Below, piece after piece: positions 2,722-47,303 of a DNA stretch of 64,000 nt. Every line of letters starts with the position of its first letter. Position 1 is the stretch's first letter. Source of the stretch: a virus. Taxonomy: Duplodnaviria > Heunggongvirae > Uroviricota > Caudoviricetes. The translations under genes and the position numbers were made by a program. The notes beneath the pieces are model-generated. The model was not told where the DNA came from. It saw nothing but the letters and a program-made list of their open reading frames with translations, and searched no databases. The stretch covers positions 1 to 64,000 of the IMG/VR virus record IMGVR_UViG_3300023314_000004; one strand, 5' to 3'.

Positions 2722-4089
2722 TTAAATTGTTACAATTCTTTCTTTTAAAGCATTCTTAATATCAATGATATTAGATATACTTACTACTGGAACATTTTCC
2801 TGACAAGACAGTTTTTCAAATGTTTTGTCTTTTAATTGTTGTTCTAGCTCTTCCACACTAGCATTAAAATATTCCTGAGAATAATCAGCTAAATCTCCAC
2901 TATCTACATGAGAGGAATATTCTCCTAAATCTACAGCTCCTACAATAAACATTTCACTCACCCTCATTTTATTACATTCATGGTTAGGAACACTCCTCAC
3001 TTTAGATGGATTGACGAGTGCTAGTACACCAGTGTCACCAAAACCGTTAAACATAAAGCTCCTTGAACCTACATGTAATCCTGCACTACATGAACGAGAA
3101 TTATCTAAATCAATTTTATCCTCATCTTCTCTATACACTTCTCCAATTTTAATAATCTTTGTCCTTGTATGAGCATCTGTATAAATATTCTCAGCCATAG
3201 TGTTTAAACTAGTATAAAGTTCTGCTAAATTGCCTTCTATTTTTTCAATACCACTTGGACGATCATCTGTACTAAGTAAATAGGAACCATCATCCTTTAA
3301 CCAAACAAAATAATTTTTAGGACTTTTCTTATTCTTTTTTACTTTAAAATACTGTTCTCCTACAAATGTAACTAAAGCTTTATCCGTACTACCTACATTT
3401 ACCACTCTCCTATAAAGCTCTAACATACCATTTAATGTAATGGAAATATCATTATTCTTTACAAAAGACAATAAATCCCTCCTACTACTTTCAATAGGAT
3501 TGAGAGCTGTCCATCTCCAGAACATTTTTAATGCTTCAAATTGCTCTTGTAGCACTACTAGTTTTTGAGTTTCTCCAATGCTATCAATAGAAAATAAAGG
3601 AATAGCAGCCTTCTTCTCTAAAATTTCAATAAAACTAGCTAGGACAATAGGAACCAAAGGAAGAGCTACACCTTTAAGGAAAATATCATCTCCTATTTGT
3701 TCAAAATCCTGATGCTTCTTAATAATAGACAAATTATCTTGTACAAAAGCTATTTCCTCTTGAGTGTATTCTTCTTTTATTGTTTCTTTCACTTCAGGTA
3801 CAGGAATTAGTAAAGTTCTAACTTGATCTTCTGTATAGGCATCCTTCACTTTTTGGAACAATTCTCCATCTCCTACAGCATTAATCACTACACCACCTTC
3901 CATTACCACTGTAATTTTACCATTAGTGTATAATAGTTTCTTATAAGGAGGTTTCCATGTCACTTGAACAGACATTTTATCCAGCCTTTTCTGAAAAATT
4001 CCATTTGTTAATTCTTGTTCTTTTACTTTTAATTTGTCCAGAGCTTCTCTTTCCGGAGATCTAAACCAGCTAAAATTAAACCATTTCAT
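2722..4089 (-). CDS. hypothetical protein (immediate neighbour of the GHKL ATPase gene)
   Basis: 455-aa ORF, no recognisable motifs. Stop lies 24 nt before the start of the GHKL gene. Confidence 0.55.
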   Translation of the reverse strand: MKWFNFSWFRSPEREALDKLKVKEQELTNGIFQKRLDKMSVQVTWKPPYKKLLYTNGKITVVMEGGVVINAVGDGELFQKVKDAYTEDQVRTLLIPVPEVKETIKEEYTQEEIAFVQDNLSIIKKHQDFEQIGDDIFLKGVALPLVPIVLASFIEILEKKAAIPLFSIDSIGETQKLVVLQEQFEALKMFWRWTALNPIESSRRDLLSFVKNNDISITLNGMLELYRRVVNVGSTDKALVTFVGEQYFKVKKNKKSPKNYFVWLKDDGSYLLSTDDRPSGIEKIEGNLAELYTSLNTMAENIYTDAHTRTKIIKIGEVYREDEDKIDLDNSRSCSAGLHVGSRSFMFNGFGDTGVLALVNPSKVRSVPNHECNKMRVSEMFIVGAVDLGEYSSHVDSGDLADYSQEYFNASVEELEQQLKDKTFEKLSCQENVPVVSISNIIDIKNALKERIVTI

Positions 4090-4112
4090 AATTTTTAAAT
4101 TTAAATTTTTAA

Positions 4113-6359
4113 TTAAAACGTTGCTTCTTCTTGTTTTTCTTCTACTTGTGGCTTATATACAAGTTCATAATTTTCCAATTCATTATAATATTTCTTTCTA
4201 AATAATAACATTTGGTTAATCATTTTGTTTATTTCTCCTAATTTATCTGTTTCATAATAGCTAGGAACTTTAATATGCTGAATGAAAGAAAATGTCTCCA
4301 TATTCTTATCCACTCTATTAATTAAAGGTAGCATTTCTTCGTCATATAAATTCATTTCTTTTGCTAAATCTGCAATAGCTTTTCCAGCTTCTTGAGTGAA
4401 GCTTTCTGCATGTTCATTTATATAAGCTCTAACCTTGGTGAGATCTTCTTCTACATTTTTTAAACAAGTTTTAATTATCTCACTACTACTTCTATATATT
4501 GCATTGTATTTCCCTACTACTTTTTCAGCTAATAAAGCTGTCGCTATCCTTCTAAAAGGTTTATTATCACTCATAAATTCATTATAAAGTTTAAATTGTT
4601 GTACATGTTTTATTTTATTCCATTCTCTTACACCTACAATAGCTACTTTTTCTCTTTTTACTAAAGCAGCTAAGGATTTAGCCTCATCACGTTGATCTGG
4701 CATAAATACAATAGTTAGATGAGGAGTTTTATGTATTTCTGACAGCTTATATGTCTTTTTCTCAAATGTCTGACTATAACCAATTTCTGTTTTACGAGAA
4801 TAGGCTATTGTCACTTCATCTTCTTGTTTATTTAAAGCTGTATAATTACTTTCAATCTTTCCTCTATTTTCCTTAAGCCATTCTTTTCTTAGAGCTAACC
4901 AAGATTGAAAAGCACTAGATTTTTCTATTCCTCTATAGTCTAAGCAAAAATCTGTAATTATCTGTTTTTCAACATTTTGCCATTCCACTATACCTTTTCT
5001 CCATTGTTCTTTAGGGAAAAGACCTACAACATTTCTAATATACCAACCTAAATTTATTTTTTGATCTAAACTAACAAATAATACACCCTTCCCCACTCTT
5101 TCTTTAATGTATTCTTTTACATTACCTGCAAGATGAGGATCTACAAGTACCACTTTAGTTTTATTATGGAAAGTCATAGTGAGGCTAGTATATATTCTCT
5201 TAGTCCTCCAAACACCATTATTTCCATATTCAGCTTTGATATCAAACATACCCATAAGGTCATTAGCCTTACCTTTATACCATTGTGCAGGTCTTAATTC
5301 CATATCCTCCACTTGAAAATCCTCTACTTTTATAGAAGAATATTTTGCAAGATATTGAACATCATATCCATTATCACCTATATTTACATATTTATTGGAA
5401 GATCCTATAATGGAATATACATCCATAAATCTTACTTTATCCTTAATACTGTCGTTGTATTGTGTGATAAAATAATCTGCAACTTCTCCTATTCTTTTCT
5501 TAATTAAGTCTAAAGTTTCCCTTGAGTTGAGATAGTTTTCTCTGCTAGGTGTAGGAACAATTCCATCTTTTAATCCAAATCTTAAGGCAATACCTAAAGG
5601 AATAGGAGATATACCTAGCTTATCATAGTCTATTTCATACACTACATCTTTAAGACAAAGATGTATATTGTTATAAGAAGGGTTGGAACTATACTGAAAT
5701 AGTTCATGACGATATATTTTATTTTCCCATAATACACCATCCATAATTAGAACAACAGTGTCATAATAAGCCAGCTTCTGTTTAGCTTTCAGTTTAAACT
5801 CATTATATTCTCTCCAATCATTAATTGGCATTTCAAATAACACACCATTCTCTTCATCTGTGTCTTCTTCATATATAAGGTCGTAGTCAATAAGTTCTTC
5901 TCCCTTATAGCATAAATATTTACATTTCCAACCATCTTTTACTATTGTGAATGTAACACTACGCTTTAAAGAAACCCATGCCTTACTTCCTAAGCCAAAG
6001 TGTCCTATCATATCATCACTATTCTCCTTAGTGGAGGACAGCATAGACATAAAGAATTCCTCAAAGAAATCTTTACTCATACCAGTACCCTTATCCTCAA
6101 TACTTAAAGTGTAAGTATTATTTTCGGAATGTAGTTTAACTACAACTGGATTTTCAATAGGATCTTTACCACTTTCTAAAATACTATCTACACCATTATT
6201 GCTAAGTTCTACAATAGTAGCACTCATAGCATCTTTATATAATCCTTCTGTGAGGATGTATTGTAATTTCTGTATTTTCTGTGTATTAATAGTGGCAGTG
6301 CCAGATTTCTCCTGCCCCACCACTTCCAATACATCACTTCTTTGATTATTAATTATCAT
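4113..6359 (-). CDS. GHKL-superfamily ATPase domain protein (Hsp90/MORC/MutL-like Bergerat fold), 748 aa
   Basis: N-terminal Bergerat-fold motifs in correct order and spacing: N-box IVELSNNGVDS (E…N…D), G1 box IEDKGTGMS (DxGxGM), G2 box IGHFGLGSKA (GxFGxGxxA). About 600 further residues without recognisable motifs. Confidence 0.6.
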   Translation of the reverse strand: MIINNQRSDVLEVVGQEKSGTATINTQKIQKLQYILTEGLYKDAMSATIVELSNNGVDSILESGKDPIENPVVVKLHSENNTYTLSIEDKGTGMSKDFFEEFFMSMLSSTKENSDDMIGHFGLGSKAWVSLKRSVTFTIVKDGWKCKYLCYKGEELIDYDLIYEEDTDEENGVLFEMPINDWREYNEFKLKAKQKLAYYDTVVLIMDGVLWENKIYRHELFQYSSNPSYNNIHLCLKDVVYEIDYDKLGISPIPLGIALRFGLKDGIVPTPSRENYLNSRETLDLIKKRIGEVADYFITQYNDSIKDKVRFMDVYSIIGSSNKYVNIGDNGYDVQYLAKYSSIKVEDFQVEDMELRPAQWYKGKANDLMGMFDIKAEYGNNGVWRTKRIYTSLTMTFHNKTKVVLVDPHLAGNVKEYIKERVGKGVLFVSLDQKINLGWYIRNVVGLFPKEQWRKGIVEWQNVEKQIITDFCLDYRGIEKSSAFQSWLALRKEWLKENRGKIESNYTALNKQEDEVTIAYSRKTEIGYSQTFEKKTYKLSEIHKTPHLTIVFMPDQRDEAKSLAALVKREKVAIVGVREWNKIKHVQQFKLYNEFMSDNKPFRRIATALLAEKVVGKYNAIYRSSSEIIKTCLKNVEEDLTKVRAYINEHAESFTQEAGKAIADLAKEMNLYDEEMLPLINRVDKNMETFSFIQHIKVPSYYETDKLGEINKMINQMLLFRKKYYNELENYELVYKPQVEEKQEEATF

Positions 6360-7292: not shown

Positions 7293-7622
7293 TCATCTTT
7301 TGTCATATTTTTCTTTTAAAGCTTTATACAATTTTTCTTCTGCTTCTTGTTGTTTAATTAATCTATTCTTTTCATCAATTTCAAATTGTTCTTTTCTTTT
7401 AAAGAACTCTTCCATAGTTTCAGTTTTTAATTCATAAACATCATACTCGTCTCCATTATATTCTATGTTAATTTTGGAATTTCCATATGCTAATCTTTTT
7501 TGTTTTAAAAATTCAATAATCTCATCTAAATTTCCTTCTAGATCACTTTTAAGTATATATTCTTTATATATGGATTGTTGTCTTAAAGTGTCGTCAAAAA
7601 CTGGCCTATACATATTTTCCAT
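7293..7622 (-). CDS. hypothetical protein
   Basis: 109-aa K/E-rich ORF. Confidence 0.4.
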   Translation of the reverse strand: MENMYRPVFDDTLRQQSIYKEYILKSDLEGNLDEIIEFLKQKRLAYGNSKINIEYNGDEYDVYELKTETMEEFFKRKEQFEIDEKNRLIKQQEAEEKLYKALKEKYDKR

Positions 7623-7980
7623 TTATTAGTTTTTTATTATAATTATAAGGAATTTGCCCCTTTTTAAATGTTTGGTTATTTGAAAATGTGAGTCCATTCC
7701 CCGCTCTTTTAGAAATAAGGGAAAGTCCTATAGATTTATAATATTCCATATACCAACTTTCCCAAAATTGCCATTTTTCTATCTCCACTTCATCTAATAT
7801 TTCAAGAATGGGTTTTAATTTAGCTCTTTTTAACTTATCAATCCACAAAAGCTTATCTATTGTAATTCCTCTAATATCTTGTAAATGATCTCTAAGTCTC
7901 CTATAAGGATCATTTGCTTTTCCTATATATTTAATTGTTTGTTCTATTGGACATAACAATGCATAAATGTATGTTTTCAT
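7606..7980 (-). CDS. GIY-YIG nuclease domain protein (small, stand-alone)
   Basis: 124 aa. N-terminus YIYALLCPIEQTIKYIGKANDPYRRLRDH matches GIY…YIG…R…H spacing of the GIY-YIG catalytic module. Confidence 0.5.
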   Translation of the reverse strand: MKTYIYALLCPIEQTIKYIGKANDPYRRLRDHLQDIRGITIDKLLWIDKLKRAKLKPILEILDEVEIEKWQFWESWYMEYYKSIGLSLISKRAGNGLTFSNNQTFKKGQIPYNYNKKLINGKYV

Positions 7981-16618: not shown

Positions 16619-16821
16619 TTTAATTGATTTAATACATTTATCACTTCATCTATAGCTTCTACAGGAATTTGCATTCTTAAATAAGTGGTAGTTGAATTTG
16701 TTCTAGGATTAATTGATTCTACATCAATAACATCTCCTACTTTAGTTAAACTCAAGCCTACCTGATTTGGCCATTTAGACATTGCTACTGATTGTACTTG
16801 TCTATTATATCTTATTTCCAT
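16615..16821 (-). CDS. hypothetical protein
   Basis: 68-aa ORF between two translationally coupled neighbours. Confidence 0.35.
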   Translation of the reverse strand: MEIRYNRQVQSVAMSKWPNQVGLSLTKVGDVIDVESINPRTNSTTTYLRMQIPVEAIDEVINVLNQLK

Positions 16822-18476
16822 AATTTTTCTCTAATTTCTGTTAATGTCTGTTGATTCTCAAATTTACCATCTTCATAAATAGTCTGTAATAGTCCCTGAT
16901 TTTCTTCTTCCACTGTACATTCTTGTTTTACAGACAAATCTTCATTTACACATATGAAGCCTTTTAAAGATTTTTTAGTTCCATCTCCTGTAACAGGATC
17001 TTTATAGATGTTAAAGCCAGTTCTTATACCATCTTCTAAAGTTTCAAACCATGCTCCTTTAGCTGCATATCCGGCTGAATCTCTAGTGAGCATAATATAA
17101 GTATATGAACCTACTCCTAATACAATATTAGTAGAGGCAAATTCCTTAGCTGCTAGTCTTTCATACATTGCTATTTGTCTTTCAAGATTGATACTATCCC
17201 CATAAATAGCCCCGATGTGACTATCTAATCTTTTATAACCTTCTTTACTTTCATCTCCTCCAAATATGTCCCAAAGTAATTCTACTACACCTTTATGCCT
17301 AGGATGTAACACTACTTCACCATTAACAAGTTTTGCGTATGTATTCCCGCAAATTACAAAATCGTCACCTTCTCTAAGATGACTAGCTTTTACATCCATA
17401 GAGAGTTCTCCACAAATAATATCCACTGGATCACCTGTATCTGGACGTAATACTAATTTACCATCTCTAGCTAAAATTTCTTTTTTAAGTCTAGGAACAA
17501 TATATGTACAAGCTTTCCATGTATCAAAAGTATCACACACATAAGATAAGATACCTTTAGGAAATTTAATAAGCCAATCTCTAAGCATTAGCCATTCAGA
17601 AATAGCTAAATAATCAGGATTTTCCCTACTGCCGTCTGCCGGTAAATCAAATGAATAGTATTCTTCGATTTTATCATTTAGTAATCCAGCCTTAAGTTTA
17701 GCTTCATAATAGAAAATATTGGTGCAGCTTACACTATGTTCAGAAGCATTAACAGAATTAATACACACTTCATCCTCTGTTACATCGTAATAGTACCTAG
17801 CAGCGGATATTACATTTAAGCTATCACTACCTCTATTACTTAAAGCATGACCTAGACCTACTGCAATAGAACTAAAAGGATTACCACCTCTGCTATGAAA
17901 ATCATGGTTCATATAATCTGTAAGCCATAAATTTTCACTATCTGTCTTATTCACCCATTCTACACTATTCTTTTTAAATTGGTGTCCAATAGTAGCTGCT
18001 GTAGGCATTTGCCAAGCAAGTTTAGATATTAATGTTTCTAAAAACAACCCTAACCAAGCATATCCATCCACAGTATTAATACCTGTCATGTGAGGAATGT
18101 TAGGAGGAGTTAGTATTCCTTCAGGCAAAGCTTTAATTTTAATAGGGAGATAACCTAATTTATGTAAATCTACAAAATGTTGGGCATCATATTCCATTCC
18201 CAAGTATTTAGCCATATCCTCTCCAAATTTTTCTGCTACTTCTACAGATTGATCAAAAAACTCTTCTTGAAAAGAACTATGTAAATATCTAACAACTAAT
18301 TGTTGTCCTGCACTCATAATTTTAGTAATAGAAGGATGCATGAATTTTAAATTTCTAGGTATCCATGTCCAATATTCTTTTACAGTGGAAGGAGCTAACA
18401 TAGCTTTATGAGCAATTTTGTACCCGTCTACCTCATAAAGAGGATTGATTTTAAATGTTTTATTTAACTTTTCCAT
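16812..18476 (-). CDS. nicotinamide phosphoribosyltransferase-family enzyme (NAMPT/NadV-like; could equally be a NARP1 Namat-type enzyme)
   Basis: 554 aa. …LYEVDGYKIAHKAM… (TDSYKVTHY-like), …LVLRPDTGDPVDII… (RPDSGDP), …HIGAIYGDSI… (IQGDG). Size typical of phage NadV. Confidence 0.75.
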   Translation of the reverse strand: MEKLNKTFKINPLYEVDGYKIAHKAMLAPSTVKEYWTWIPRNLKFMHPSITKIMSAGQQLVVRYLHSSFQEEFFDQSVEVAEKFGEDMAKYLGMEYDAQHFVDLHKLGYLPIKIKALPEGILTPPNIPHMTGINTVDGYAWLGLFLETLISKLAWQMPTAATIGHQFKKNSVEWVNKTDSENLWLTDYMNHDFHSRGGNPFSSIAVGLGHALSNRGSDSLNVISAARYYYDVTEDEVCINSVNASEHSVSCTNIFYYEAKLKAGLLNDKIEEYYSFDLPADGSRENPDYLAISEWLMLRDWLIKFPKGILSYVCDTFDTWKACTYIVPRLKKEILARDGKLVLRPDTGDPVDIICGELSMDVKASHLREGDDFVICGNTYAKLVNGEVVLHPRHKGVVELLWDIFGGDESKEGYKRLDSHIGAIYGDSINLERQIAMYERLAAKEFASTNIVLGVGSYTYIMLTRDSAGYAAKGAWFETLEDGIRTGFNIYKDPVTGDGTKKSLKGFICVNEDLSVKQECTVEEENQGLLQTIYEDGKFENQQTLTEIREKLWK

Positions 18477-18868: not shown

Positions 18869-19073
18869 TTAATGTTTCTATTATTTGTTTAGCAAATTTT
18901 CTATCTAAATTTTTCATTTCTTGCGAAAGTTCGTTATAAGATTTAAAACATTCTTTTTCCCATCTTTCTTTTCTTTCCGCAGAAATAAGGGGTTCTGATT
19001 CTAATAAAATCTTAGCCCATCCCATCCATAAATCATGGATGATAACCGCAACTAATTCTTCTTTATCTATCAT
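18861..19073 (-). CDS. hypothetical protein
   Basis: 70-aa ORF. Confidence 0.3.
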   Translation of the reverse strand: MIDKEELVAVIIHDLWMGWAKILLESEPLISAERKERWEKECFKSYNELSQEMKNLDRKFAKQIIETLNG

Positions 19074-19873
19074 ATAATTTTATATTGTGTTATAAAAGAA
19101 GACAATACTTCTTCAGGTAAATCTTTAACTGAATTTGTGCAATAAATACGATTTATACATTTATCCAAAGAACTCTCAGGATCTGTAAGTTCTAAGGGAG
19201 TGTTAAACCCTTTAGAGAAATAACCATGACTTATATATAGATTAACTACAGTAGCCCCCTGTTCTTTTAGGGCCTTAGAAAGGAGATAAAATGTATATCC
19301 TCCGTCACAAATGTCATCTATAATAAGACATGTCTTATCTTTAACATCCCCTAAAATATTTAATGATACTTTTCCTTGTAAATCCCTAAATTTATTAGCT
19401 GCTACTAAGGGTAGATCTAAGTCCTCGGCATATTTAAATACTTTCTTATAAGCTCCTGCATCAGGACTGACAAGTACTAAATTTTCCGTTCCTAAATCTT
19501 CAACAACTTGTTTTACATATTCAAAACTACTAATTTTTTCAGAATTGTTAATTAAAGCTAAAGAAACATCAGAATGAGGATCAAATATAGATACTTTTTG
19601 AAAATTCATTCTATTAATAAAATCTGTAATTTGCTTTAAGCCAAAGCTTTCATTATTAGAAAACCTTCTATCACTTCTTTGCCCAAATAAACAAGGTATT
19701 TCTAATGAATAAGCTTCTCTTGACCTATGTTTAATATCTAAAACTTCTTTTAAAGAAGCTATTTTAAATAAATCTTCATAACTATTTATTCTTTGCTTTA
19801 CAAGCCTAGTAGTAATATCTTCTGTTTCCACTTTAACATTTATCTGTCCATCAGGATATTTAATTATTTCCAT
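19070..19873 (-). CDS. ribose-phosphate pyrophosphokinase-family enzyme (Prs-like; could be an ADPR-pyrophosphate synthetase Adps-type enzyme)
   Basis: 267 aa. …LVSPDAGAYK… and PRPP-binding loop …CLIIDDICDGGYT… (hhhDDhhDTGGT-like). Confidence 0.75.
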   Translation of the reverse strand: MEIIKYPDGQINVKVETEDITTRLVKQRINSYEDLFKIASLKEVLDIKHRSREAYSLEIPCLFGQRSDRRFSNNESFGLKQITDFINRMNFQKVSIFDPHSDVSLALINNSEKISSFEYVKQVVEDLGTENLVLVSPDAGAYKKVFKYAEDLDLPLVAANKFRDLQGKVSLNILGDVKDKTCLIIDDICDGGYTFYLLSKALKEQGATVVNLYISHGYFSKGFNTPLELTDPESSLDKCINRIYCTNSVKDLPEEVLSSFITQYKII

Positions 19874-40589: not shown

Positions 40590-40611
40590 TTACAAAATGA
40601 ACAGTTCTCGG

Positions 40612-40685
40612 TAGGAGTAATAGGATTTGAACCTATGACTTACATGGTATAAGCATGGTGTTCTACCAAGCTGAACTATACTCCC
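40612..40685 (-). tRNA. tRNA, anticodon UAU (tentatively tRNA-Ile reading AUA)
   Basis: Minus-strand sequence GGGAGTA-TA-GTTC-AGCTTGGTA-GAAC-A-CCATG-CTTATAC-CATGT-AAGTC-ATAGG-TTCAAAT-CCTAT-TACTCCT-A folds as a canonical cloverleaf: 7-bp acceptor stem with G1·U72, D stem GTTC/GAAC, T loop TTCAAAT, U33, purine 37. One C27·U43 mismatch. Followed by CC then G, so CCA is not fully encoded. Confidence 0.7.
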
Positions 40686-42318: not shown

Positions 42319-42561
42319 TTAAATTCCTTCGTAATAGATTTCTAATAATTCATCTGCTAATACAGCAGCTGGATGAAAATGATTATAAATGGTGTGAATG
42401 ACACTATCTGAAGCTAAAATTAGCCAAATGTGCCATGTTTTCTTTGTATTATCATCAGAAAGAGACAATTGCCATTCTTTAGCCTTAGCTATTTTCTCTA
42501 ATTGGCTTAATTCCCTCCACCAATGTAAAGCATTTTGTCTTGATTGTAAGTTTAGGTCCAT
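42319..42561 (-). CDS. hypothetical protein
   Basis: 80-aa ORF. Confidence 0.4.
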   Translation of the reverse strand: MDLNLQSRQNALHWWRELSQLEKIAKAKEWQLSLSDDNTKKTWHIWLILASDSVIHTIYNHFHPAAVLADELLEIYYEGI

Positions 42562-42759: not shown

Positions 42760-43260
42760 TTAAATGTTAGAAAATTTAAATAATAATGGATTAATTCTAA
42801 TTACAGGAACTTGTTGTTTTTTAATATGAAAGGCATAATCATAGCAATTCTTAGTTCCTCCTGCTGATCCATCCCAAATAGCTAATAGAATATCACAATT
42901 GTCTGACATCCAGACATTACGAGCTTGCATACAACTATTAGTGTATGGTTTCTCACTAACATAATATTTAGTACATAGGGGATGATTAACTATTCTATTA
43001 TACCTATCCTGAGACTTTTTAGGCCACATTTTCTCTTGGTCTTTACAAGGAATGGCAGCTATAAATGGAATGTTATTAATAATAGCCATTTCAGCCCATA
43101 ACATATCCACTCCTAAAGCCATACCTGTAATAATTTGTGTAGGTTTATGGTCTTTAATTACTTCAGCCATTCTATCTCTAATGGCATCAGAATATTTACC
43201 TATTCCATCATATTCATTACCAAGTTTGTTAGGTCTATGACCTGTTACAGCTATTTTCAT
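42760..43260 (-). CDS. YpsA/DUF1273-like SLOG-superfamily (SMF/DprA-LOG) nucleotide-binding protein
   Basis: 166 aa. N-terminus MKIAVTGHRPNKLG… and …IITGMALGVDMLWAEMAI… fit the YpsA-type SLOG Rossmann pattern (AVTGhRP…G…G.D). Confidence 0.45.
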   Translation of the reverse strand: MKIAVTGHRPNKLGNEYDGIGKYSDAIRDRMAEVIKDHKPTQIITGMALGVDMLWAEMAIINNIPFIAAIPCKDQEKMWPKKSQDRYNRIVNHPLCTKYYVSEKPYTNSCMQARNVWMSDNCDILLAIWDGSAGGTKNCYDYAFHIKKQQVPVIRINPLLFKFSNI

Positions 43261-43266
43261 AATTAA

Positions 43267-43443
43267 ATTTTAAACTTCTTTATCAAATAATATTTGTATT
43301 TCTCTACCTGTTAAGGAATTAGGATCTCTATCAGGATAACCAGTGACATCCTCTTTATATTTCACTATCATAAACCACTGATTTTCAAATGATAATTTAT
43401 CCCACCATTCTATAGCAGATTGTCTTTGTTGTTGATAAGTGGT
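43267..43443 (-). CDS. possible small protein (58 aa, below the ORF-track cutoff)
   Basis: ATG at 43443, stop TAA at 43267-43269 (MTTYQQQRQSAIEWWDKLSFENQWFMIVKYKEDVTGYPDRDPNSLTGREIQILFDKEV). Starts 4 nt upstream of the SLOG gene. Confidence 0.25.
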
Positions 43444-43477
43444 CATAATTAATTGATTTAATGTGTTTTATAAAATA

Positions 43478-43660
43478 ATCCATTGTAAATTAGCACAGTT
43501 GCAACCTATTGTCGAACAATCGGTGTAGTGACTTATATACTACTTTAATAATTTACAATGGATTAAAATTTAGCACCCTTAGCATTACCTATTAGGGTCA
43601 CTGTAACTATTGTGGGTCTTTCGGGGTTTCTGTTAATTCCGAAGAACTTATAATGAGCCA
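43478..43660. repeat. repeat-rich noncoding region (inverted and direct repeats), candidate replication origin or regulatory element
   Basis: 13-bp inverted repeat TCCATTGTAAATT (43479-43491) / AATTTACAATGGA (43547-43559). Direct repeats AAATTAGCAC…ACCTATTG (43488-43515) and AAATTTAGCAC…ACCTATTAG (43560-43594). GTAGTGAC/GGTCACTG partial palindromes. No ORF of 60 aa or more that is co-oriented with its neighbours. Confidence 0.4.
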
Positions 43661-43899
43661 AACCCTTAGCTTTATTCATTATTTTACAGCTTCAACCATA
43701 ATTACATTGCTGAGGCTCATTCGTGTTGTGTACATGATATGGCTATATTTCTATAGTAAGTACATTCTATGTTCCACCACATTCCTTTCTCAAGGGAACA
43801 ACACGTTATACATCTCTGTATATATCTTTATGTTCTATTCCAGCTCCTAAGAGAGTATATAGATACAAGGGTAATTCAATGTTTAACCCAAATACAAAG

Positions 43900-44064
43900 T
43901 TACAAATTTATATCAGGATACCAAGATTTAAAACTATCTAAATCTGTAACATCCCAATCACTACCTAATGAAAACATCTTTTCAGTAGCTTCATCACTAT
44001 TCTCAAATATTTCCCATTCTGTAGGTGTATTACAAGTACGGAAATTGTTGTAAATGATAAACAT
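43900..44064 (-). CDS. possible small protein (54 aa, below the ORF-track cutoff)
   Basis: ATG 44064, stop 43900 (MFIIYNNFRTCNTPTEWEIFENSDEATEKMFSLGSDWDVTDLDSFKSWYPDINL). Co-oriented with the downstream minus-strand genes. Confidence 0.25.
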   Translation of the reverse strand: MFIIYNNFRTCNTPTEWEIFENSDEATEKMFSLGSDWDVTDLDSFKSWYPDINL

Positions 44065-44081
44065 GATTATTAATTTAAAGG

Positions 44082-44372
44082 TTACAAATCTAATTCTATT
44101 TCAAAGGAGAAATCTTCAACAGGAATCGAATTGTGAAACATTTGAACTACTTTATCACTTAAATACTTGTAATCCTTATTAAAAAGTGAAGTAAGTCTTT
44201 TATCACTTTCGTTTTGAACTATAGCAGCTCCAGTATCCCTAGCATTTATTCCAACTCTTTGTAAAGCTTTTGTAATAGCACATTTTGCAGGATTAAGATA
44301 GTTTGGTATATCCTCAGCTAGGATGTTTAATGTTATTTTCATGATTTTAAGTTTTAGATGTTTTATATTCAA
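44082..44372 (-). CDS. hypothetical protein
   Basis: 96-aa ORF. Confidence 0.4.
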   Translation of the reverse strand: MNIKHLKLKIMKITLNILAEDIPNYLNPAKCAITKALQRVGINARDTGAAIVQNESDKRLTSLFNKDYKYLSDKVVQMFHNSIPVEDFSFEIELDL

Positions 44373-44589
44373 ATTCTAATATTCCAAGATATAAATAAGC
44401 ACAAATACGATGTATACCATCAGCAATAGTGTAATAACTGTTTTTCGGTGGATATAATTCAATAATAGGCATAATATGTCCATTAGATATATCCTTAATC
44501 ATCTGAAGGGTAATAATATTATTTTGATAATGTAATATTACATCTTTTGTTAATCCTCCTCTATTAAGCTGAAAGAATGATATTTTCAT
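44347..44589 (-). CDS. hypothetical protein
   Basis: 80-aa ORF. Confidence 0.4.
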   Translation of the reverse strand: MKISFFQLNRGGLTKDVILHYQNNIITLQMIKDISNGHIMPIIELYPPKNSYYTIADGIHRICAYLYLGILEFEYKTSKT

Positions 44590-44822
44590 GTTATTGCTAT
44601 TTAAAGGGTGAAAATATTACTATTATATGCACTGTAAGAATAAAAATAGTCTAAGTGTACGACATTTAATCAGGACTCAACATCACTAGTATGAACGCAC
44701 ACTAGCAACTCCTCCCTTTAATATCTATTTATATTATAACCCGAAATATTATAATATTTTCCTGACCACTTAAACTATTTTAATTGATAACTAATTGATA
44801 CTATATGGACAGAAAGGCTAAA

Positions 44823-45008
44823 TTAAGAGCCTTTTCTAAAAGACATTTGTTCTTTTGTATCAGATATTAATTTTTGAATACCCTCAGTGTCATAACTCCA
44901 ACTACTATCTTCTTGTTTAGCTCTATTTAGAGCATCAAGCTTAGTTTCTAATAGATCTAAATAGTCTGATATATCTATTTGTACTCTATCGTTAATGTAA
45001 GTTGTCAT
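44823..45008 (-). CDS. hypothetical small protein (first gene of the minus-strand block)
   Basis: 61-aa acidic ORF. Confidence 0.35.
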   Translation of the reverse strand: MTTYINDRVQIDISDYLDLLETKLDALNRAKQEDSSWSYDTEGIQKLISDTKEQMSFRKGS

Positions 45009-45068
45009 AATATTAAGGTTTTATTGTTTTTAATGTTGTAAGGATAAATAGTTGTATATAATGAAGAA

Positions 45069-45485
45069 ATGAATTATATTTGTAGTATGAATACATTAAG
45101 ATCTATGGAAAGACAGCTTAAAAGAGAAGCTAAATTAGAATATAAAGCTAACACTAGAAATAGTTTCCCTAAAGGGACAAACCCTAAATATAAGCAATAT
45201 TACGTCAGTTCTAAGAAGAATGCACTAATATTTGAATTTGATGAACAAGAGTTTATTAATTATATAGAGGAAGAATGTTATTATTGTGGTAAGAGTAATT
45301 CTCAAGGGATAGATAAGATAGACCCTAAAGGCCATTATAAGAAAGATAATTGTGTACCATGTTGTAAGATGTGTAATACTATGAAGTTTATATACTCTAA
45401 GGAAGAGTTTCTAGCTCATGTAAACAGAATACATACACATAATGCTATGAAAGACAATACAACTATTATTTTGTCACCTCTTTAA
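45069..45485 (+). CDS. HNH-like endonuclease (possibly degenerate)
   Basis: 138 aa. CYYCG…GIDKIDPKGHYKKDNCVPCCKMCNTMK matches the CxxCG…D(H)I.P…N…C..CN..K HNH layout, but the usual His-Asp catalytic position reads Lys-Ile-Asp. Confidence 0.45.
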   Translation: MNYICSMNTLRSMERQLKREAKLEYKANTRNSFPKGTNPKYKQYYVSSKKNALIFEFDEQEFINYIEEECYYCGKSNSQGIDKIDPKGHYKKDNCVPCCKMCNTMKFIYSKEEFLAHVNRIHTHNAMKDNTTIILSPL

Positions 45486-45533
45486 TACATTCATCACACA
45501 TCATCTGTGTACACACCTCTTCTCTCATTTATT

Positions 45534-45585
45534 CGATAAATATTTATCGTTTATCAATAAATCCGTACAATTAATCAATTGATTA
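45534..45585. promoter_or_regulatory. two perfect palindromes in the early/late switch region (candidate operator sites)
   Basis: CGATAAATATTTATCG (45534-45549, 16 bp) and TAATCAATTGATTA (45572-45585, 14 bp), 22 bp apart. Flanking TTTATC direct repeats. Confidence 0.4.
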
Positions 45586-45679
45586 TCAATATATTACGTA
45601 TCTGTAACCAAAACAGAATAAGTTTGTTGGGAAATATATACCCACCCGTACAGAATGCATCTGATTGCCATCCCATATA

Positions 45680-45712
45680 CAAAAAGAAAGAGGAGTGAAC
45701 TTAATCACTCCC
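45680..45712 (-). terminator. rho-independent terminator of the minus-strand gene 45720..46103
   Basis: On the minus strand: stop codon, then GGAGTGA-TTAAGT-TCACTCC hairpin, then TCTTTCTTTTTG. Confidence 0.55.
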
Positions 45713-45719
45713 CAATCAA

Positions 45720-46103
45720 TTAGCCTACTACAGCCTCTGTAGCCATGAAATCAGCAGCTTTCCATTGAATGTTAGCCAATGAAGCAGCTTTAGCTTTGAT
45801 GATTGAACGTTTAAGGTCACGTTCTTCCATGCGATCCATTGCATCTTCACTAACAAAGCTGTCGAATTCAGGTCTAACTAATGGTGTTTCTTTCTTAGTG
45901 CCATCCGCATTTTCATCGTATGTTACTTCTACTAAGCTTACATTACCATCAAGAACATCACCCTCTTTCAACCCTAAGTCCTTGGGAATGAATGTTCTAC
46001 CATGACCTGGTACTCTGGCATAAAGTCCGCCCTGACCTAATGCTGCTACGATAACACCAGCTAATTTAATTACTCCGTCGATTTTTTTTGCACTTTGTGC
46101 CAT
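45720..46103 (-). CDS. hypothetical protein, isolated minus-strand gene within the plus-strand late region (moron-like)
   Basis: 127 aa (MAQSAKKIDGVIKLAGVIVAALGQGGLYARVPGHGRTF…). Visibly GC-richer (~40%+) than surrounding DNA. Own downstream terminator and an upstream hairpin plus G-tract region. Confidence 0.55.
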   Translation of the reverse strand: MAQSAKKIDGVIKLAGVIVAALGQGGLYARVPGHGRTFIPKDLGLKEGDVLDGNVSLVEVTYDENADGTKKETPLVRPEFDSFVSEDAMDRMEERDLKRSIIKAKAASLANIQWKAADFMATEAVVG

Positions 46104-46130
46104 AATTATAGTTTTTAAATGTTTGTAATA

Positions 46131-46200
46131 AGGGGAGTACCATCACTCCCTACCTCTATGTGGGGGTTGTGAGGGGGATGTAGACGTTATGGGGGTGTAT
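46131..46200. other. hairpin plus four G4-5 tracts (G-rich island in an AT-rich genome) upstream of the moron gene
   Basis: GGGAGT-ACCATC-ACTCCC hairpin (46133-46150), then GGGGG at 46162, 46173 and 46191 (TGGGGGTTGTGAGGGGGATGTAGACGTTATGGGGGTG). Confidence 0.35.
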
Positions 46201-46274
46201 GTATAAAATTTTTAGTATTTGAAAAATTTTGGAAAATAATTTTTTTATAATATAATTAGTGTTATCTTTACTCT

Positions 46275-46520
46275 ATGGAGTATGATTTGTCTCTCTTTAA
46301 AGAAATATTTAATAAAGCGTTCGATCAAAAAGCTAGTAGACCATTTAAAATGTATACTGGAGTAGGAGGAATGGATATGTTCGAGGAAGCTGTAGAGGGA
46401 CAAGGAGGAATGAAAAGAGTGTATATAGGGAGGAAAGTTCCTAGGTGGCTGAGAGCTGGTGTTAAGAATATTAAGCTTTCCAGGAGAAATAGATATTATA
46501 AACTTGTAAAAAATGTTTAA
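46275..46520 (+). CDS. hypothetical protein
   Basis: 81-aa basic ORF. Preferred over the antisense ORF 46245..46529 because all downstream genes are plus-strand and its composition is protein-like. Confidence 0.4.
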   Translation: MEYDLSLFKEIFNKAFDQKASRPFKMYTGVGGMDMFEEAVEGQGGMKRVYIGRKVPRWLRAGVKNIKLSRRNRYYKLVKNV

Positions 46521-46758
46521 ATTTAACATAAGAGGATATAAATCTAAGTCTTATCCCTATCCAGAGATAAAGTTTTACACTCAATATAAAGGTATTTATT
46601 ATAGATTTGATGATAATTGTCCTTTAGGCCCTGTATGGCATCTATCTGATAGTTTAGATCTTTTAGGTTATTATGCTTATTATAATGCAGACATATGGAG
46701 AATAGATGAATGTTTTGAAATATTTTTAAAAGAAAAAGAAGAAGATGGCTTATATTAA
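46513..46758 (+). CDS. hypothetical protein
   Basis: 81-aa ORF. Confidence 0.4.
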   Translation: MFKFNIRGYKSKSYPYPEIKFYTQYKGIYYRFDDNCPLGPVWHLSDSLDLLGYYAYYNADIWRIDECFEIFLKEKEEDGLY

Positions 46759-46901
46759 AATGGATAGTATGCCCTATAGAAAGGGAGAGATATTAAATAT
46801 TGGTAGTCAACAGGTTATCATCACTAGAGTGCATAGATCCACTTGGTGGAAAAGATTTATTAAATATCTGGCCTCTAAGGTTAGAATAAACGAATATAAA
46901 A

Positions 46902-47303
46902 TTGAACAATATGGAGTTTAAAGAAGTACAGGAAAATATAGATAAACTACCTAATAAAGGAGATTTATCTGATGGCTATCACAGCTTTAATGAGCTGTAT
47001 GAGTTTAGAAAGATTTATAATGCCGCCTTATTTAATGAATGGATGGAATATTCTAATTACACTTCAGAAGATAAGCCTAAATATAATGTACATAAGTCTT
47101 GGAAGCATTTTGATGGAGAATTATGTTTTGGTGGGGGATGGTTTATAGTTGTAGCTGTCCTACCTACAGGTCAGATTTCTAATCATTATGAAGCTAAAGA
47201 TTGGGATTTATTTAAAATACCAGAAACAGAAAAAGCTCTATTTGAATTTGATGGTCACACATCTGAGGATGTATTAAACAGATTAAAACTTATTTATGGA
47301 TAA
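46902..47303 (+). CDS. hypothetical protein
   Basis: 133-aa ORF. Confidence 0.45.
   Translation: MNNMEFKEVQENIDKLPNKGDLSDGYHSFNELYEFRKIYNAALFNEWMEYSNYTSEDKPKYNVHKSWKHFDGELCFGGGWFIVVAVLPTGQISNHYEAKDWDLFKIPETEKALFEFDGHTSEDVLNRLKLIYG

Follow-up and report, generated by a model that had tools for sequence, protein, structure and literature searches.

Why does one GC-rich gene appear to run against its neighbors in the late region of a tailed-phage genome? The gene in question is an open reading frame (ORF) at 45720-46103, on the minus strand of a 64,000-nt stretch (positions 1 to 64,000, called the window below) of the IMG/VR virus record IMGVR_UViG_3300023314_000004 (Caudoviricetes). It begins with ATG and encodes a protein of 127 amino acids (aa) with a mass of 13.6 kDa and a pI of 5.2. 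The original prediction took it for a moron: a gene acquired by horizontal transfer, foreign in composition, lodged among late genes, and controlled by a G-quadruplex island. Our analysis points in another direction. We favor a native, conserved, and separately transcribed gene that heads the early arm in an uncultivated crAss-like phage and encodes a product resembling a single-stranded DNA-binding protein (SSB). We put the probability of this explanation as a whole at roughly 45%.

The strand anomaly has a simple origin. In the window ORF list, every gene from 539 to 45008 lies on the minus strand, and from 46275 onward the plus strand carries small genes followed by the terminase, portal, and capsid genes. 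The long minus-strand run places the true strand divergence at 46104-46274 and makes the ORF the first gene of a 45-kb leftward replication arm. The sole plus-strand gene within that arm encodes an HNH homing endonuclease (Table 1), and it is the intrusion of this gene that makes the ORF look out of place. The earlier description of the ORF as the only minus-strand gene downstream of the strand switch is right about its strand, but it depends on taking the HNH gene for the switch. The claim of an insertion between late genes does not survive: the ORF heads the early/replication arm, and it is likewise the first gene after the divergent switch in all the related contigs that include upstream sequence (L003, L004, L010, and L014).

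Within the window, the minus arm encodes an exonuclease, rIIA/rIIB, PolA, a primase, two helicases, NAMPT, PRPP synthetase, and a metallophosphoesterase. Left of the window edge follow genes for RNR, a UvsX-like recombinase (E 1e-57), and dUTPase, after which this arm and the other converge. The identical 127-aa protein is encoded on a metagenomic contig of 122,055 nt, ENA ERZ27228492, which includes the window. The coordinates of two genes wrap around this record (L012, ENA contig positions 1-20634), from which we infer a circular assembly of about 121.5 kb. The genome has exactly two arms, which diverge at the junction given above and converge about 7 kb past the left edge of the window. Its portal, terminase, and capsid proteins have distant relatives in crAss-like phages; for the portal, identity to crAss-like phage portals and to that of Leptolyngbya phage Lbo-JY46 is about 25-30%. 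A Shine-Dalgarno-like motif was found in 2 of 69 genes, and positions -9 to -13 are A-rich. From these two features we judge translation initiation to be of the Bacteroidota style.

An exhaustive HMMER scan of 1.84 billion cluster representatives returned 14 family members with 35-55% identity, none of them annotated. A word-indexed search with the 127-aa protein retrieved nothing but that protein, and word-indexed searches of 5.8 billion proteins gave family members only, even at E 10. Neither the 127-aa protein nor the 14 members match Pfam or PHROGs (for Pfam, not at E up to 1), and the protein is indeed as unrecognizable as it had seemed. Comparison with 50,697 phage records by tblastn gave no match at E 1e-3 and noise only at E 10, and protein and DNA-pattern scans of IMG/VR revealed no relatives. 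The lone IMG/VR match to the pattern of the C-rich box described below (L009) was discarded as a chance hit in the coding region of an unrelated high-GC phage. The metagenome scan contributed one short locus, L010. Eight further contigs with homologues were recovered, and the gene is present in 8/8; these contigs were recovered by their carrying the gene, and the comparison includes no gene-less relative.

Five genes downstream of the homologue in L003 match the window minus-arm genes at 42319, 34139, 33234, 32483, and 31258. The C-rich box, leader hairpin, terminator, and post-terminator element are conserved between loci whose proteins are 32-55% identical. The fixed divergent position, together with the downstream gene matches, indicates a conserved clade-specific gene and not an accessory insertion. 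The homologue search thus did turn up 14 unannotated members, but what they describe is a conserved head-of-arm gene, which speaks against a moron. The moron explanation drew on the highest GC content of the window, on the gene's own terminator, and on the clustered G5 tracts. Against it stand the position and flanks conserved in related phages, the matching downstream genes, and the membership of the gene in the minus-strand arm, in which the HNH gene is the real insertion. One pattern scan of 185,579 species genomes gave no bacterial homologue. We consider a moron very improbable; conversely, the ORF is very probably a native conserved gene at the head of its arm.

The composition of the gene had been read as a sign of foreignness. 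The excess itself is real: the ORF has a GC content of 41.4% compared with 30.9% for the window, the highest of 97 ORFs, with the major capsid gene second (37.9%). Among the same ORFs it ranks first in GC1, fifth in GC2, and seventh in GC3. The protein contains 12.6% Ala, 9.4% Gly, and 9.4% Val, compared with 4.9%, 5.6%, and 5.5% over the window proteins. The GC content expected from the amino-acid sequence and the genome's own synonymous usage is 38.7%, and that observed is 41.8%, so that about three quarters of the excess comes from amino-acid content (Ala, Gly, Val, and Asp). The synonymous GC residual of the ORF (+0.031) is close to those of the capsid gene (+0.037) and the portal gene (+0.029), and we read this residual shift as an expression-linked bias. 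Taken together, a protein rich in Ala, Gly, Val, and Asp and a mild codon shift like that of the capsid and portal genes would point to high expression. The homologues in eight other contigs each lie 9-16 GC points above their own flanks (8/8 measured). High GC therefore characterizes the whole family and does not betray a recent import. The deviation in GC was correctly perceived, but it is not a foreign signature, and an excess that is explained by amino-acid content and common to all homologues measured argues against a moron. For genome scanning, the lesson is that a local GC peak in an AT-rich phage may be no more than the mark of a core gene that is rich in Ala/Gly and highly expressed.

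That the ORF is an autonomous unit, as originally claimed, is supported. It starts within the divergent intergenic region, and a strong terminator of its own closes it on the minus strand. We read the hairpin and T-run after the ORF as a functional intrinsic terminator. In six loci, the window included, a hairpin of -17 to -21 kcal/mol with a T-run lies directly 3' of the stop codon, and the stems are unrelated in sequence. The upstream GGGAGT/ACTCCC hairpin reported earlier is also present, and a G/C-rich hairpin occupies this leader position in every relative. The consensus fold of the leader hairpin from six sequences has six pairs, three of which show compensatory changes. The two hairpins had been described as related to each other. 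This is true of the window, where both begin with GGGAGTGAT on the gene strand, but not of the relatives, in which their sequences are unrelated.

The leader is built in the same order in six aligned loci: an A/T-rich spacer, a C-rich box (C-box), a G/C-rich hairpin, an A/U-rich block, and the ATG. Two further loci, L013 and L014, agree on inspection. The leader alignments show that the A/U-rich block before the ATG, AAACATTTAAAA, is kept in relatives. The C-box was matched by nhmmer in all loci with upstream sequence, once per phage, and L013 and L014 also carry it. Inspection of the leaders showed no conserved pseudoknot or loop pairing. Pairing of the C-box with the segment coding for GLKEG (inverted repeat I9) was considered and rejected, because on inspection the complementarity is not retained in L003 and L010. 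Rfam 15 gave no match at E up to 1 to the leader or the downstream non-coding region (window 43000-47000 and five related loci), and scans for tRNAs in the flanks and in related loci were negative as well.

The G-tract island on the opposite strand is as unusual as had been stated. Three GGGGG tracts (46162-46195) fall within 35 bp, and these are three of the seven runs of five or more G in the 64-kb window. The window contains two instances of the pattern G5-N1-20-G5, both of them in this island, compared with 0.07 expected from shuffles; the cluster is thus no chance effect. The island is the complementary strand of the C-box, which appears to have been mutated or duplicated to three C5 runs in the window genome. 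The version in relatives is CATCATCCTCACAACCCCC, with a single C5 run; the window has CATCCCCCTCACAACCCCC and an extra upstream copy, CACCCCCATAACGTC. The third G5 tract is the antisense of this partial upstream repeat, whose counterpart in L008, CACCTGTAACGTC, has no C5 run. The single C5 run in relatives shows the triple G5 to be peculiar to the window genome, and the quadruplex potential is not conserved. Relatives keep one C5/G5 tract and the hairpin arm, and the loops between the window tracts (hairpin arm included) measure 6, 13, and 26 nt, which is not a canonical G-quadruplex. The G-quadruplex idea, and with it the regulatory island assigned to the moron, is thus set aside.

The promoter of the ORF must lie within 46104-46274. 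A consensus scan found one sigma-70-like candidate, which faces the rightward arm (Table 1), and no such site on the minus strand of this region. On inspection, the gene strand of the window, L003, and L010 lacks TTTG promoter motifs of the Bacteroidota type, which are common on the other strand. By analogy with the early genes of phage phi14:2, this pattern would fit transcription of the ORF by a non-host polymerase.

A second conserved element follows the terminator. It consists of GTATAT(A)GGGTGGG, a small hairpin, and GGGTGGG, and was observed in seven loci. With nhmmer, the element was detected in six loci at E 1e-12 to 2e-7, once per phage. In relatives it reads GTATATAGGGTGGG...GGGTGGG, and the conserved form is TTTTTGTATATAGGGTGGG, then the hairpin, then GGGTGGG. 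The spacer hairpins sum to -17.7 kcal/mol, compared with -4.2 +/- 2.7 kcal/mol for shuffles. A consensus structure of the whole element from automatic alignment was not supported, the signal being confined to the spacer hairpin. The next promoter, a protein-binding site, and an RNA quadruplex with a hairpin loop are candidate roles. The C-box and this element were also considered as repeated early-promoter motifs and rejected, since nhmmer gives one match each per phage. Occurring once per phage and only beside this gene, they are not general promoter motifs.

What does the 127-aa protein do? An AlphaFold model from the single sequence was unusable (pLDDT 44.6), and the fold rests on the 14-sequence alignment. 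With that alignment, the model (pLDDT 83.7) shows a beta-barrel at residues 4-85, a helix at 86-110, and a tail of lower confidence. The modeled barrel has the five strands of an OB fold. Foldseek against the PDB gave a Streptomyces SSB as the top match, along with other SSBs; the best matches are weak and of the SSB/RPA type. A structure search of BFVD gave no significant match. The C-terminal tail carries a conserved motif, [W/F]xxx[D/E][F/Y]. The protein is acidic, as are T4 gp32 and T7 gp2.5. A canonical SSB was not found in any scanned ORF of the replication arm, and the presence of PolA, primase, helicases, and a UvsX-like recombinase with no recognizable SSB makes an SSB-like role the likeliest for this protein. 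The protein is probably an OB-fold nucleic-acid binder. A role like that of an SSB in replication or recombination is proposed tentatively, at slightly less than even odds.

Several observations weigh against this explanation. A profile search against PDB sequences gave marginal matches and nothing significant, hhalign against E. coli SSB gave a probability of 0.2, and there is no sequence-level link to SSB (PF00436) or any other family in Pfam or PHROGs. The fold-match scores are weak, the model was built on only 14 sequences, and many unannotated ORFs of the arm could conceal a divergent SSB. The tail is not of the acidic type of classical SSBs. An unusually stable leader structure was rejected, with z-scores against shuffles of -0.9 to +0.8, and both the promoter and the expression of the gene are deduced from sequence. 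Finally, a sharp exchange of the OB body, described below, is commoner in arms-race genes than in housekeeping replication proteins.

A small beta-barrel that binds DNA or RNA could instead be a sequence-specific regulator of the early/late switch, possibly related to AbrB/SpoVT, which would bind the G/C-rich boxes flanking its own gene and control divergent transcription. The motif GRTFIPKDLGLKEGD of the protein resembles what we take to be the SpoVT/AbrB pattern, GRVVIPKEIR..L.I.EGD, and a marginal profile match to the AbrB-like 2glw (E 0.23) is the only computed support. The C-box and the two GGGTGGG copies occur only beside this gene, and two palindromes lie downstream (45534-45549 and 45572-45585). 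However, no family member matches the Pfam AbrB/MazE model, even at E up to 1, and the looped-hinge helix is four residues too short when set against the SpoVT/AbrB pattern that we presume. The predicted fold is also a monomeric OB barrel and not a swapped hairpin. Such a regulator is improbable in our view.

An unexpected feature was seen in three related loci. In the 451 nt upstream, up to and including ATGGCA, L010 and L015 share 99.8% identity. Identity is 97.8% over the distal flank, which spans the last ~48 nt of the ORF (…DFNFAKAVGAA), the terminator, and the post-terminator element. The ORF body between these flanks (~320 nt) is only ~40-60% identical, with breakpoints at the start codon and at the C-terminal tail. 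In the two loci it encodes different subtypes of the family, type A with GRTFIPKEHG and type B with PLIVPSGLG; the type B pattern recurs in L013. In L015, the gene call (177 aa) begins upstream, inside the leader, and is probably over-extended. Among near-identical phages, the part of the gene that encodes the OB domain thus moves as a cassette, and its leader, tail, and terminator remain in place. In this exchange the tail goes with the phage backbone and not with the OB body, as expected if it docks onto phage-specific partners. The locus offers a clean natural case of allele replacement confined to one protein domain, which marks this domain as a likely target of host-defense selection. The earlier notion of a horizontally exchanged host-interaction gene retains some support to the extent that the ORF body moves as a cassette; the fixed position and flanks contradict the import of an accessory gene.

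Cassette exchange is compatible with an SSB whose DNA-binding domain is sensed by host defenses, and also with an anti-defense protein. The latter would be an early host-takeover factor, a small OB-fold protein made first and abundantly that blocks or decoys a host immune or nucleic-acid-processing factor, and whose body diversifies and is swapped between phages. An autonomous unit at the first position of the early arm, an orphan family without annotated relatives, and ORF bodies of ~40-60% identity within the near-identical flanks of L010, L015, and L013 would all suit such a protein. However, the fold matches are nucleic-acid-binding OB proteins and not known anti-defense folds (the PADLOC library was not searched), and a position and flanks fixed across divergent phages look like a core function. 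Diversification is also expected of an SSB that is sensed by host defenses, and SSB-sensing defense systems exist, some retrons among them. We consider an anti-defense protein unlikely.

A more speculative synthesis, which we hold to be quite unlikely, treats the locus as a fixed expression socket. The leader, the tail, and the terminator/post-terminator module would be invariant, and the OB body of an abundant early single-stranded DNA-binding protein would be swapped because host defenses sense or attack the OB domain. The leader might then double as a self-limiting operator and as a promoter for a non-host RNA polymerase.

The explanation we favor, a native SSB-like gene heading the early arm, can be put together as follows. 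A promoter somewhere in the 170-nt divergent intergenic region would drive the gene separately. The leader would consist of the conserved C-rich box, the G/C hairpin, and an unstructured A/U-rich stretch for ribosome loading; the 127-aa ORF would follow, and the strong intrinsic terminator would close the unit. The abundant SSB-like protein would coat single-stranded DNA for the phage PolA, primase, helicase, and UvsX-like recombinase, and its conserved aromatic tail would contact phage partners. The leader might also be an operator that makes translation self-limiting, as for T4 gene 32. This last step is drawn by analogy, and autoregulation of the gp32 kind through the leader seems to us rather unlikely.

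The region downstream of the OB gene has features of its own. The same non-coding spot holds two unrelated antisense HNH families, one of the phrog_1035 type in the window (45069-45485, plus strand) and one of the phrog_59 type in L008 (565-1014, minus strand). In L003, L004, L005, and L013, this spot is 440-590 nt without a gene. The region looks like a hot spot for free-standing homing endonucleases. Further endonuclease genes in the window are an HNH gene at 1980-2477 and a GIY-YIG gene at 7606-7980. The non-coding stretch between the OB and HNH genes contains the perfect palindromes CGATAAATATTTATCG (45534-45549) and TAATCAATTGATTA (45572-45585), which could be operator or origin-like sites; a palindrome cluster of the TTATCGATAA type is kept in L005 and L008. 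An imperfect palindrome of ~85 nt, centered on GCCGGG/CCCGGC, lies in the long non-coding region past the OB gene in L004 (~1111-1197) and L005 (~614-700). L003 has a shorter version centered on CCCGGG, and in the window it is absent or disrupted. In L003, at least two small early ORFs have a repeated motif, TTTAAATAGCATTAACA, directly before their ATG (2463-2483 and 2727-2751); the motif recurs in L005 (~1005-1020) and L008 (~1175-1190). A remnant of it, TTTCATAGCATTA, is found at 45440-45452 of the window, within the 3' end of the HNH ORF and on the opposite strand.

Elsewhere in the window, rIIA/rIIB homologues and an NAD-salvage pair (nicotinamide phosphoribosyltransferase and ribose-phosphate pyrophosphokinase) are carried on the crAss-like backbone (2722-6359, 16812-18476, and 19070-19873). 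A tRNA-Ile gene with anticodon TAT lies inside the early arm (40610-40685, minus strand). The minus-arm stretch 43447-43899 (~450 nt) has no convincing ORF, a slightly raised GC content (0.32-0.35), and no Rfam match; it could be regulatory DNA or a non-coding RNA.

Table 1. Features of the locus; coordinates refer to the window unless a related locus is named.
Feature	Coordinates	Strand	Description
HNH homing-endonuclease gene	45069..45485	+	antisense insertion in a normally non-coding region downstream of the ORF; PHROG endonuclease/HNH families, best E 1.4e-12
Post-terminator element	45636..45690	-	TTTTTGTATAT-GGGATGG, small variable hairpin, GGGTGGG
Putative intrinsic terminator	45680..45713	-	GGGGAGTGATTAAGTTCACTCCTC, 9-bp G/C-rich stem, then TTTCTTTTTG; predicted -17.4 kcal/mol
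127-aa ORF	45720..46103	-	predicted OB-fold barrel, long helix, and flexible tail with conserved aromatic motif; first gene of the leftward early/replication arm
Translation initiation region	46104..46132	-	A/T-rich, without Shine-Dalgarno motif, CTTATTACAAACATTTAAAAACTATAATT-ATG; from leader alignments
Leader hairpin	46133..46150	-	GGGAGT-GATGGT-ACTCCC (gene strand), ends ~30 nt upstream of the ATG; sequence check
C-box	46156..46181	-	ACATCCCCCTCACAACCCCCACATAG (gene strand), conserved core CCTCACAACCCCC; antisense of two of the three G5 tracts
Three G5 tracts	46162-46166, 46173-46177, 46191-46195	+	within 34 nt
Sigma-70-like promoter candidate	46229..46256	+	TTGGAA-N16-TATAAT, rightward small-gene/capsid arm; consensus scan, 10/12 positions
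Cassette-exchange loci	L010 632-1003; L015 353-886; L013 204-647		shared flanks and tail 97.7-99.8% identical (L010/L013 upstream 84.8%)

Among known systems, phage morons (lambda bor/lom and HK97-type) resemble the locus in that the gene is autonomous, ends at a terminator of its own, and differs from its surroundings in GC content. They differ from it in that the gene described here has a fixed position at the head of the early arm, regulatory flanks common to divergent relatives, and a composition explained by amino-acid content. The likeness to OB-fold SSBs (E. coli SSB, PriB, and RPA subunits, and functionally T4 gp32, T7 gp2.5, and N4 SSB) lies in the predicted OB barrel, in the SSB/RPA-type best structural matches, and in a small acidic protein in which the barrel is followed by a helix and a flexible conserved C-terminal peptide. 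The features suggestive of high expression also fit, as does the placement in a replication arm with a UvsX-like recombinase and no recognizable SSB. Sequence homology to these proteins, in contrast, is not detectable, and the tail of the 127-aa protein is aromatic/hydrophobic (W..DF....) and not acidic.

The T4 gene 32 operator, which gp32 coats to repress its own translation, has a structured element followed by an unstructured A/U-rich run. The window gene is similar in having its own terminator and a leader that is structured at about -47 to -30 and then continues as ~29 nt of unstructured A/U-rich RNA into the start codon. It differs in that its leader has a simple hairpin and not a pseudoknot, and in the additional C-box, which has no counterpart in T4.

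In habitats rich in Bacteroidota, crAss-like phages count among the most abundant viruses, yet most of their early genes have no assigned function. In the crAss-like Cellulophaga phage phi14:2, the replication and capsid modules are oppositely transcribed, the early genes are transcribed by a virion RNA polymerase and share no common promoter motif, and long, highly transcribed non-coding stretches lie near the start of the early arm (bioRxiv 10.1101/2020.03.07.982082). The window resembles it in encoding distantly crAss-like portal, terminase, and capsid proteins, but the first 9 kb of phi14:2 gave no homologue of the 127-aa protein. New here are an orphan family with a predicted OB fold, its conserved cis-elements, and allele exchange at the level of a single domain, all in a rare crAss-like lineage. 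The gene is a candidate for the missing SSB of a crAss-like lineage with a UvsX-type recombinase. It also carries a compact conserved control set, composed of C-box, leader hairpin, and double GGGTGGG element, exactly at the border of the early and late arms, where the promoters for the poorly understood early transcription should lie.

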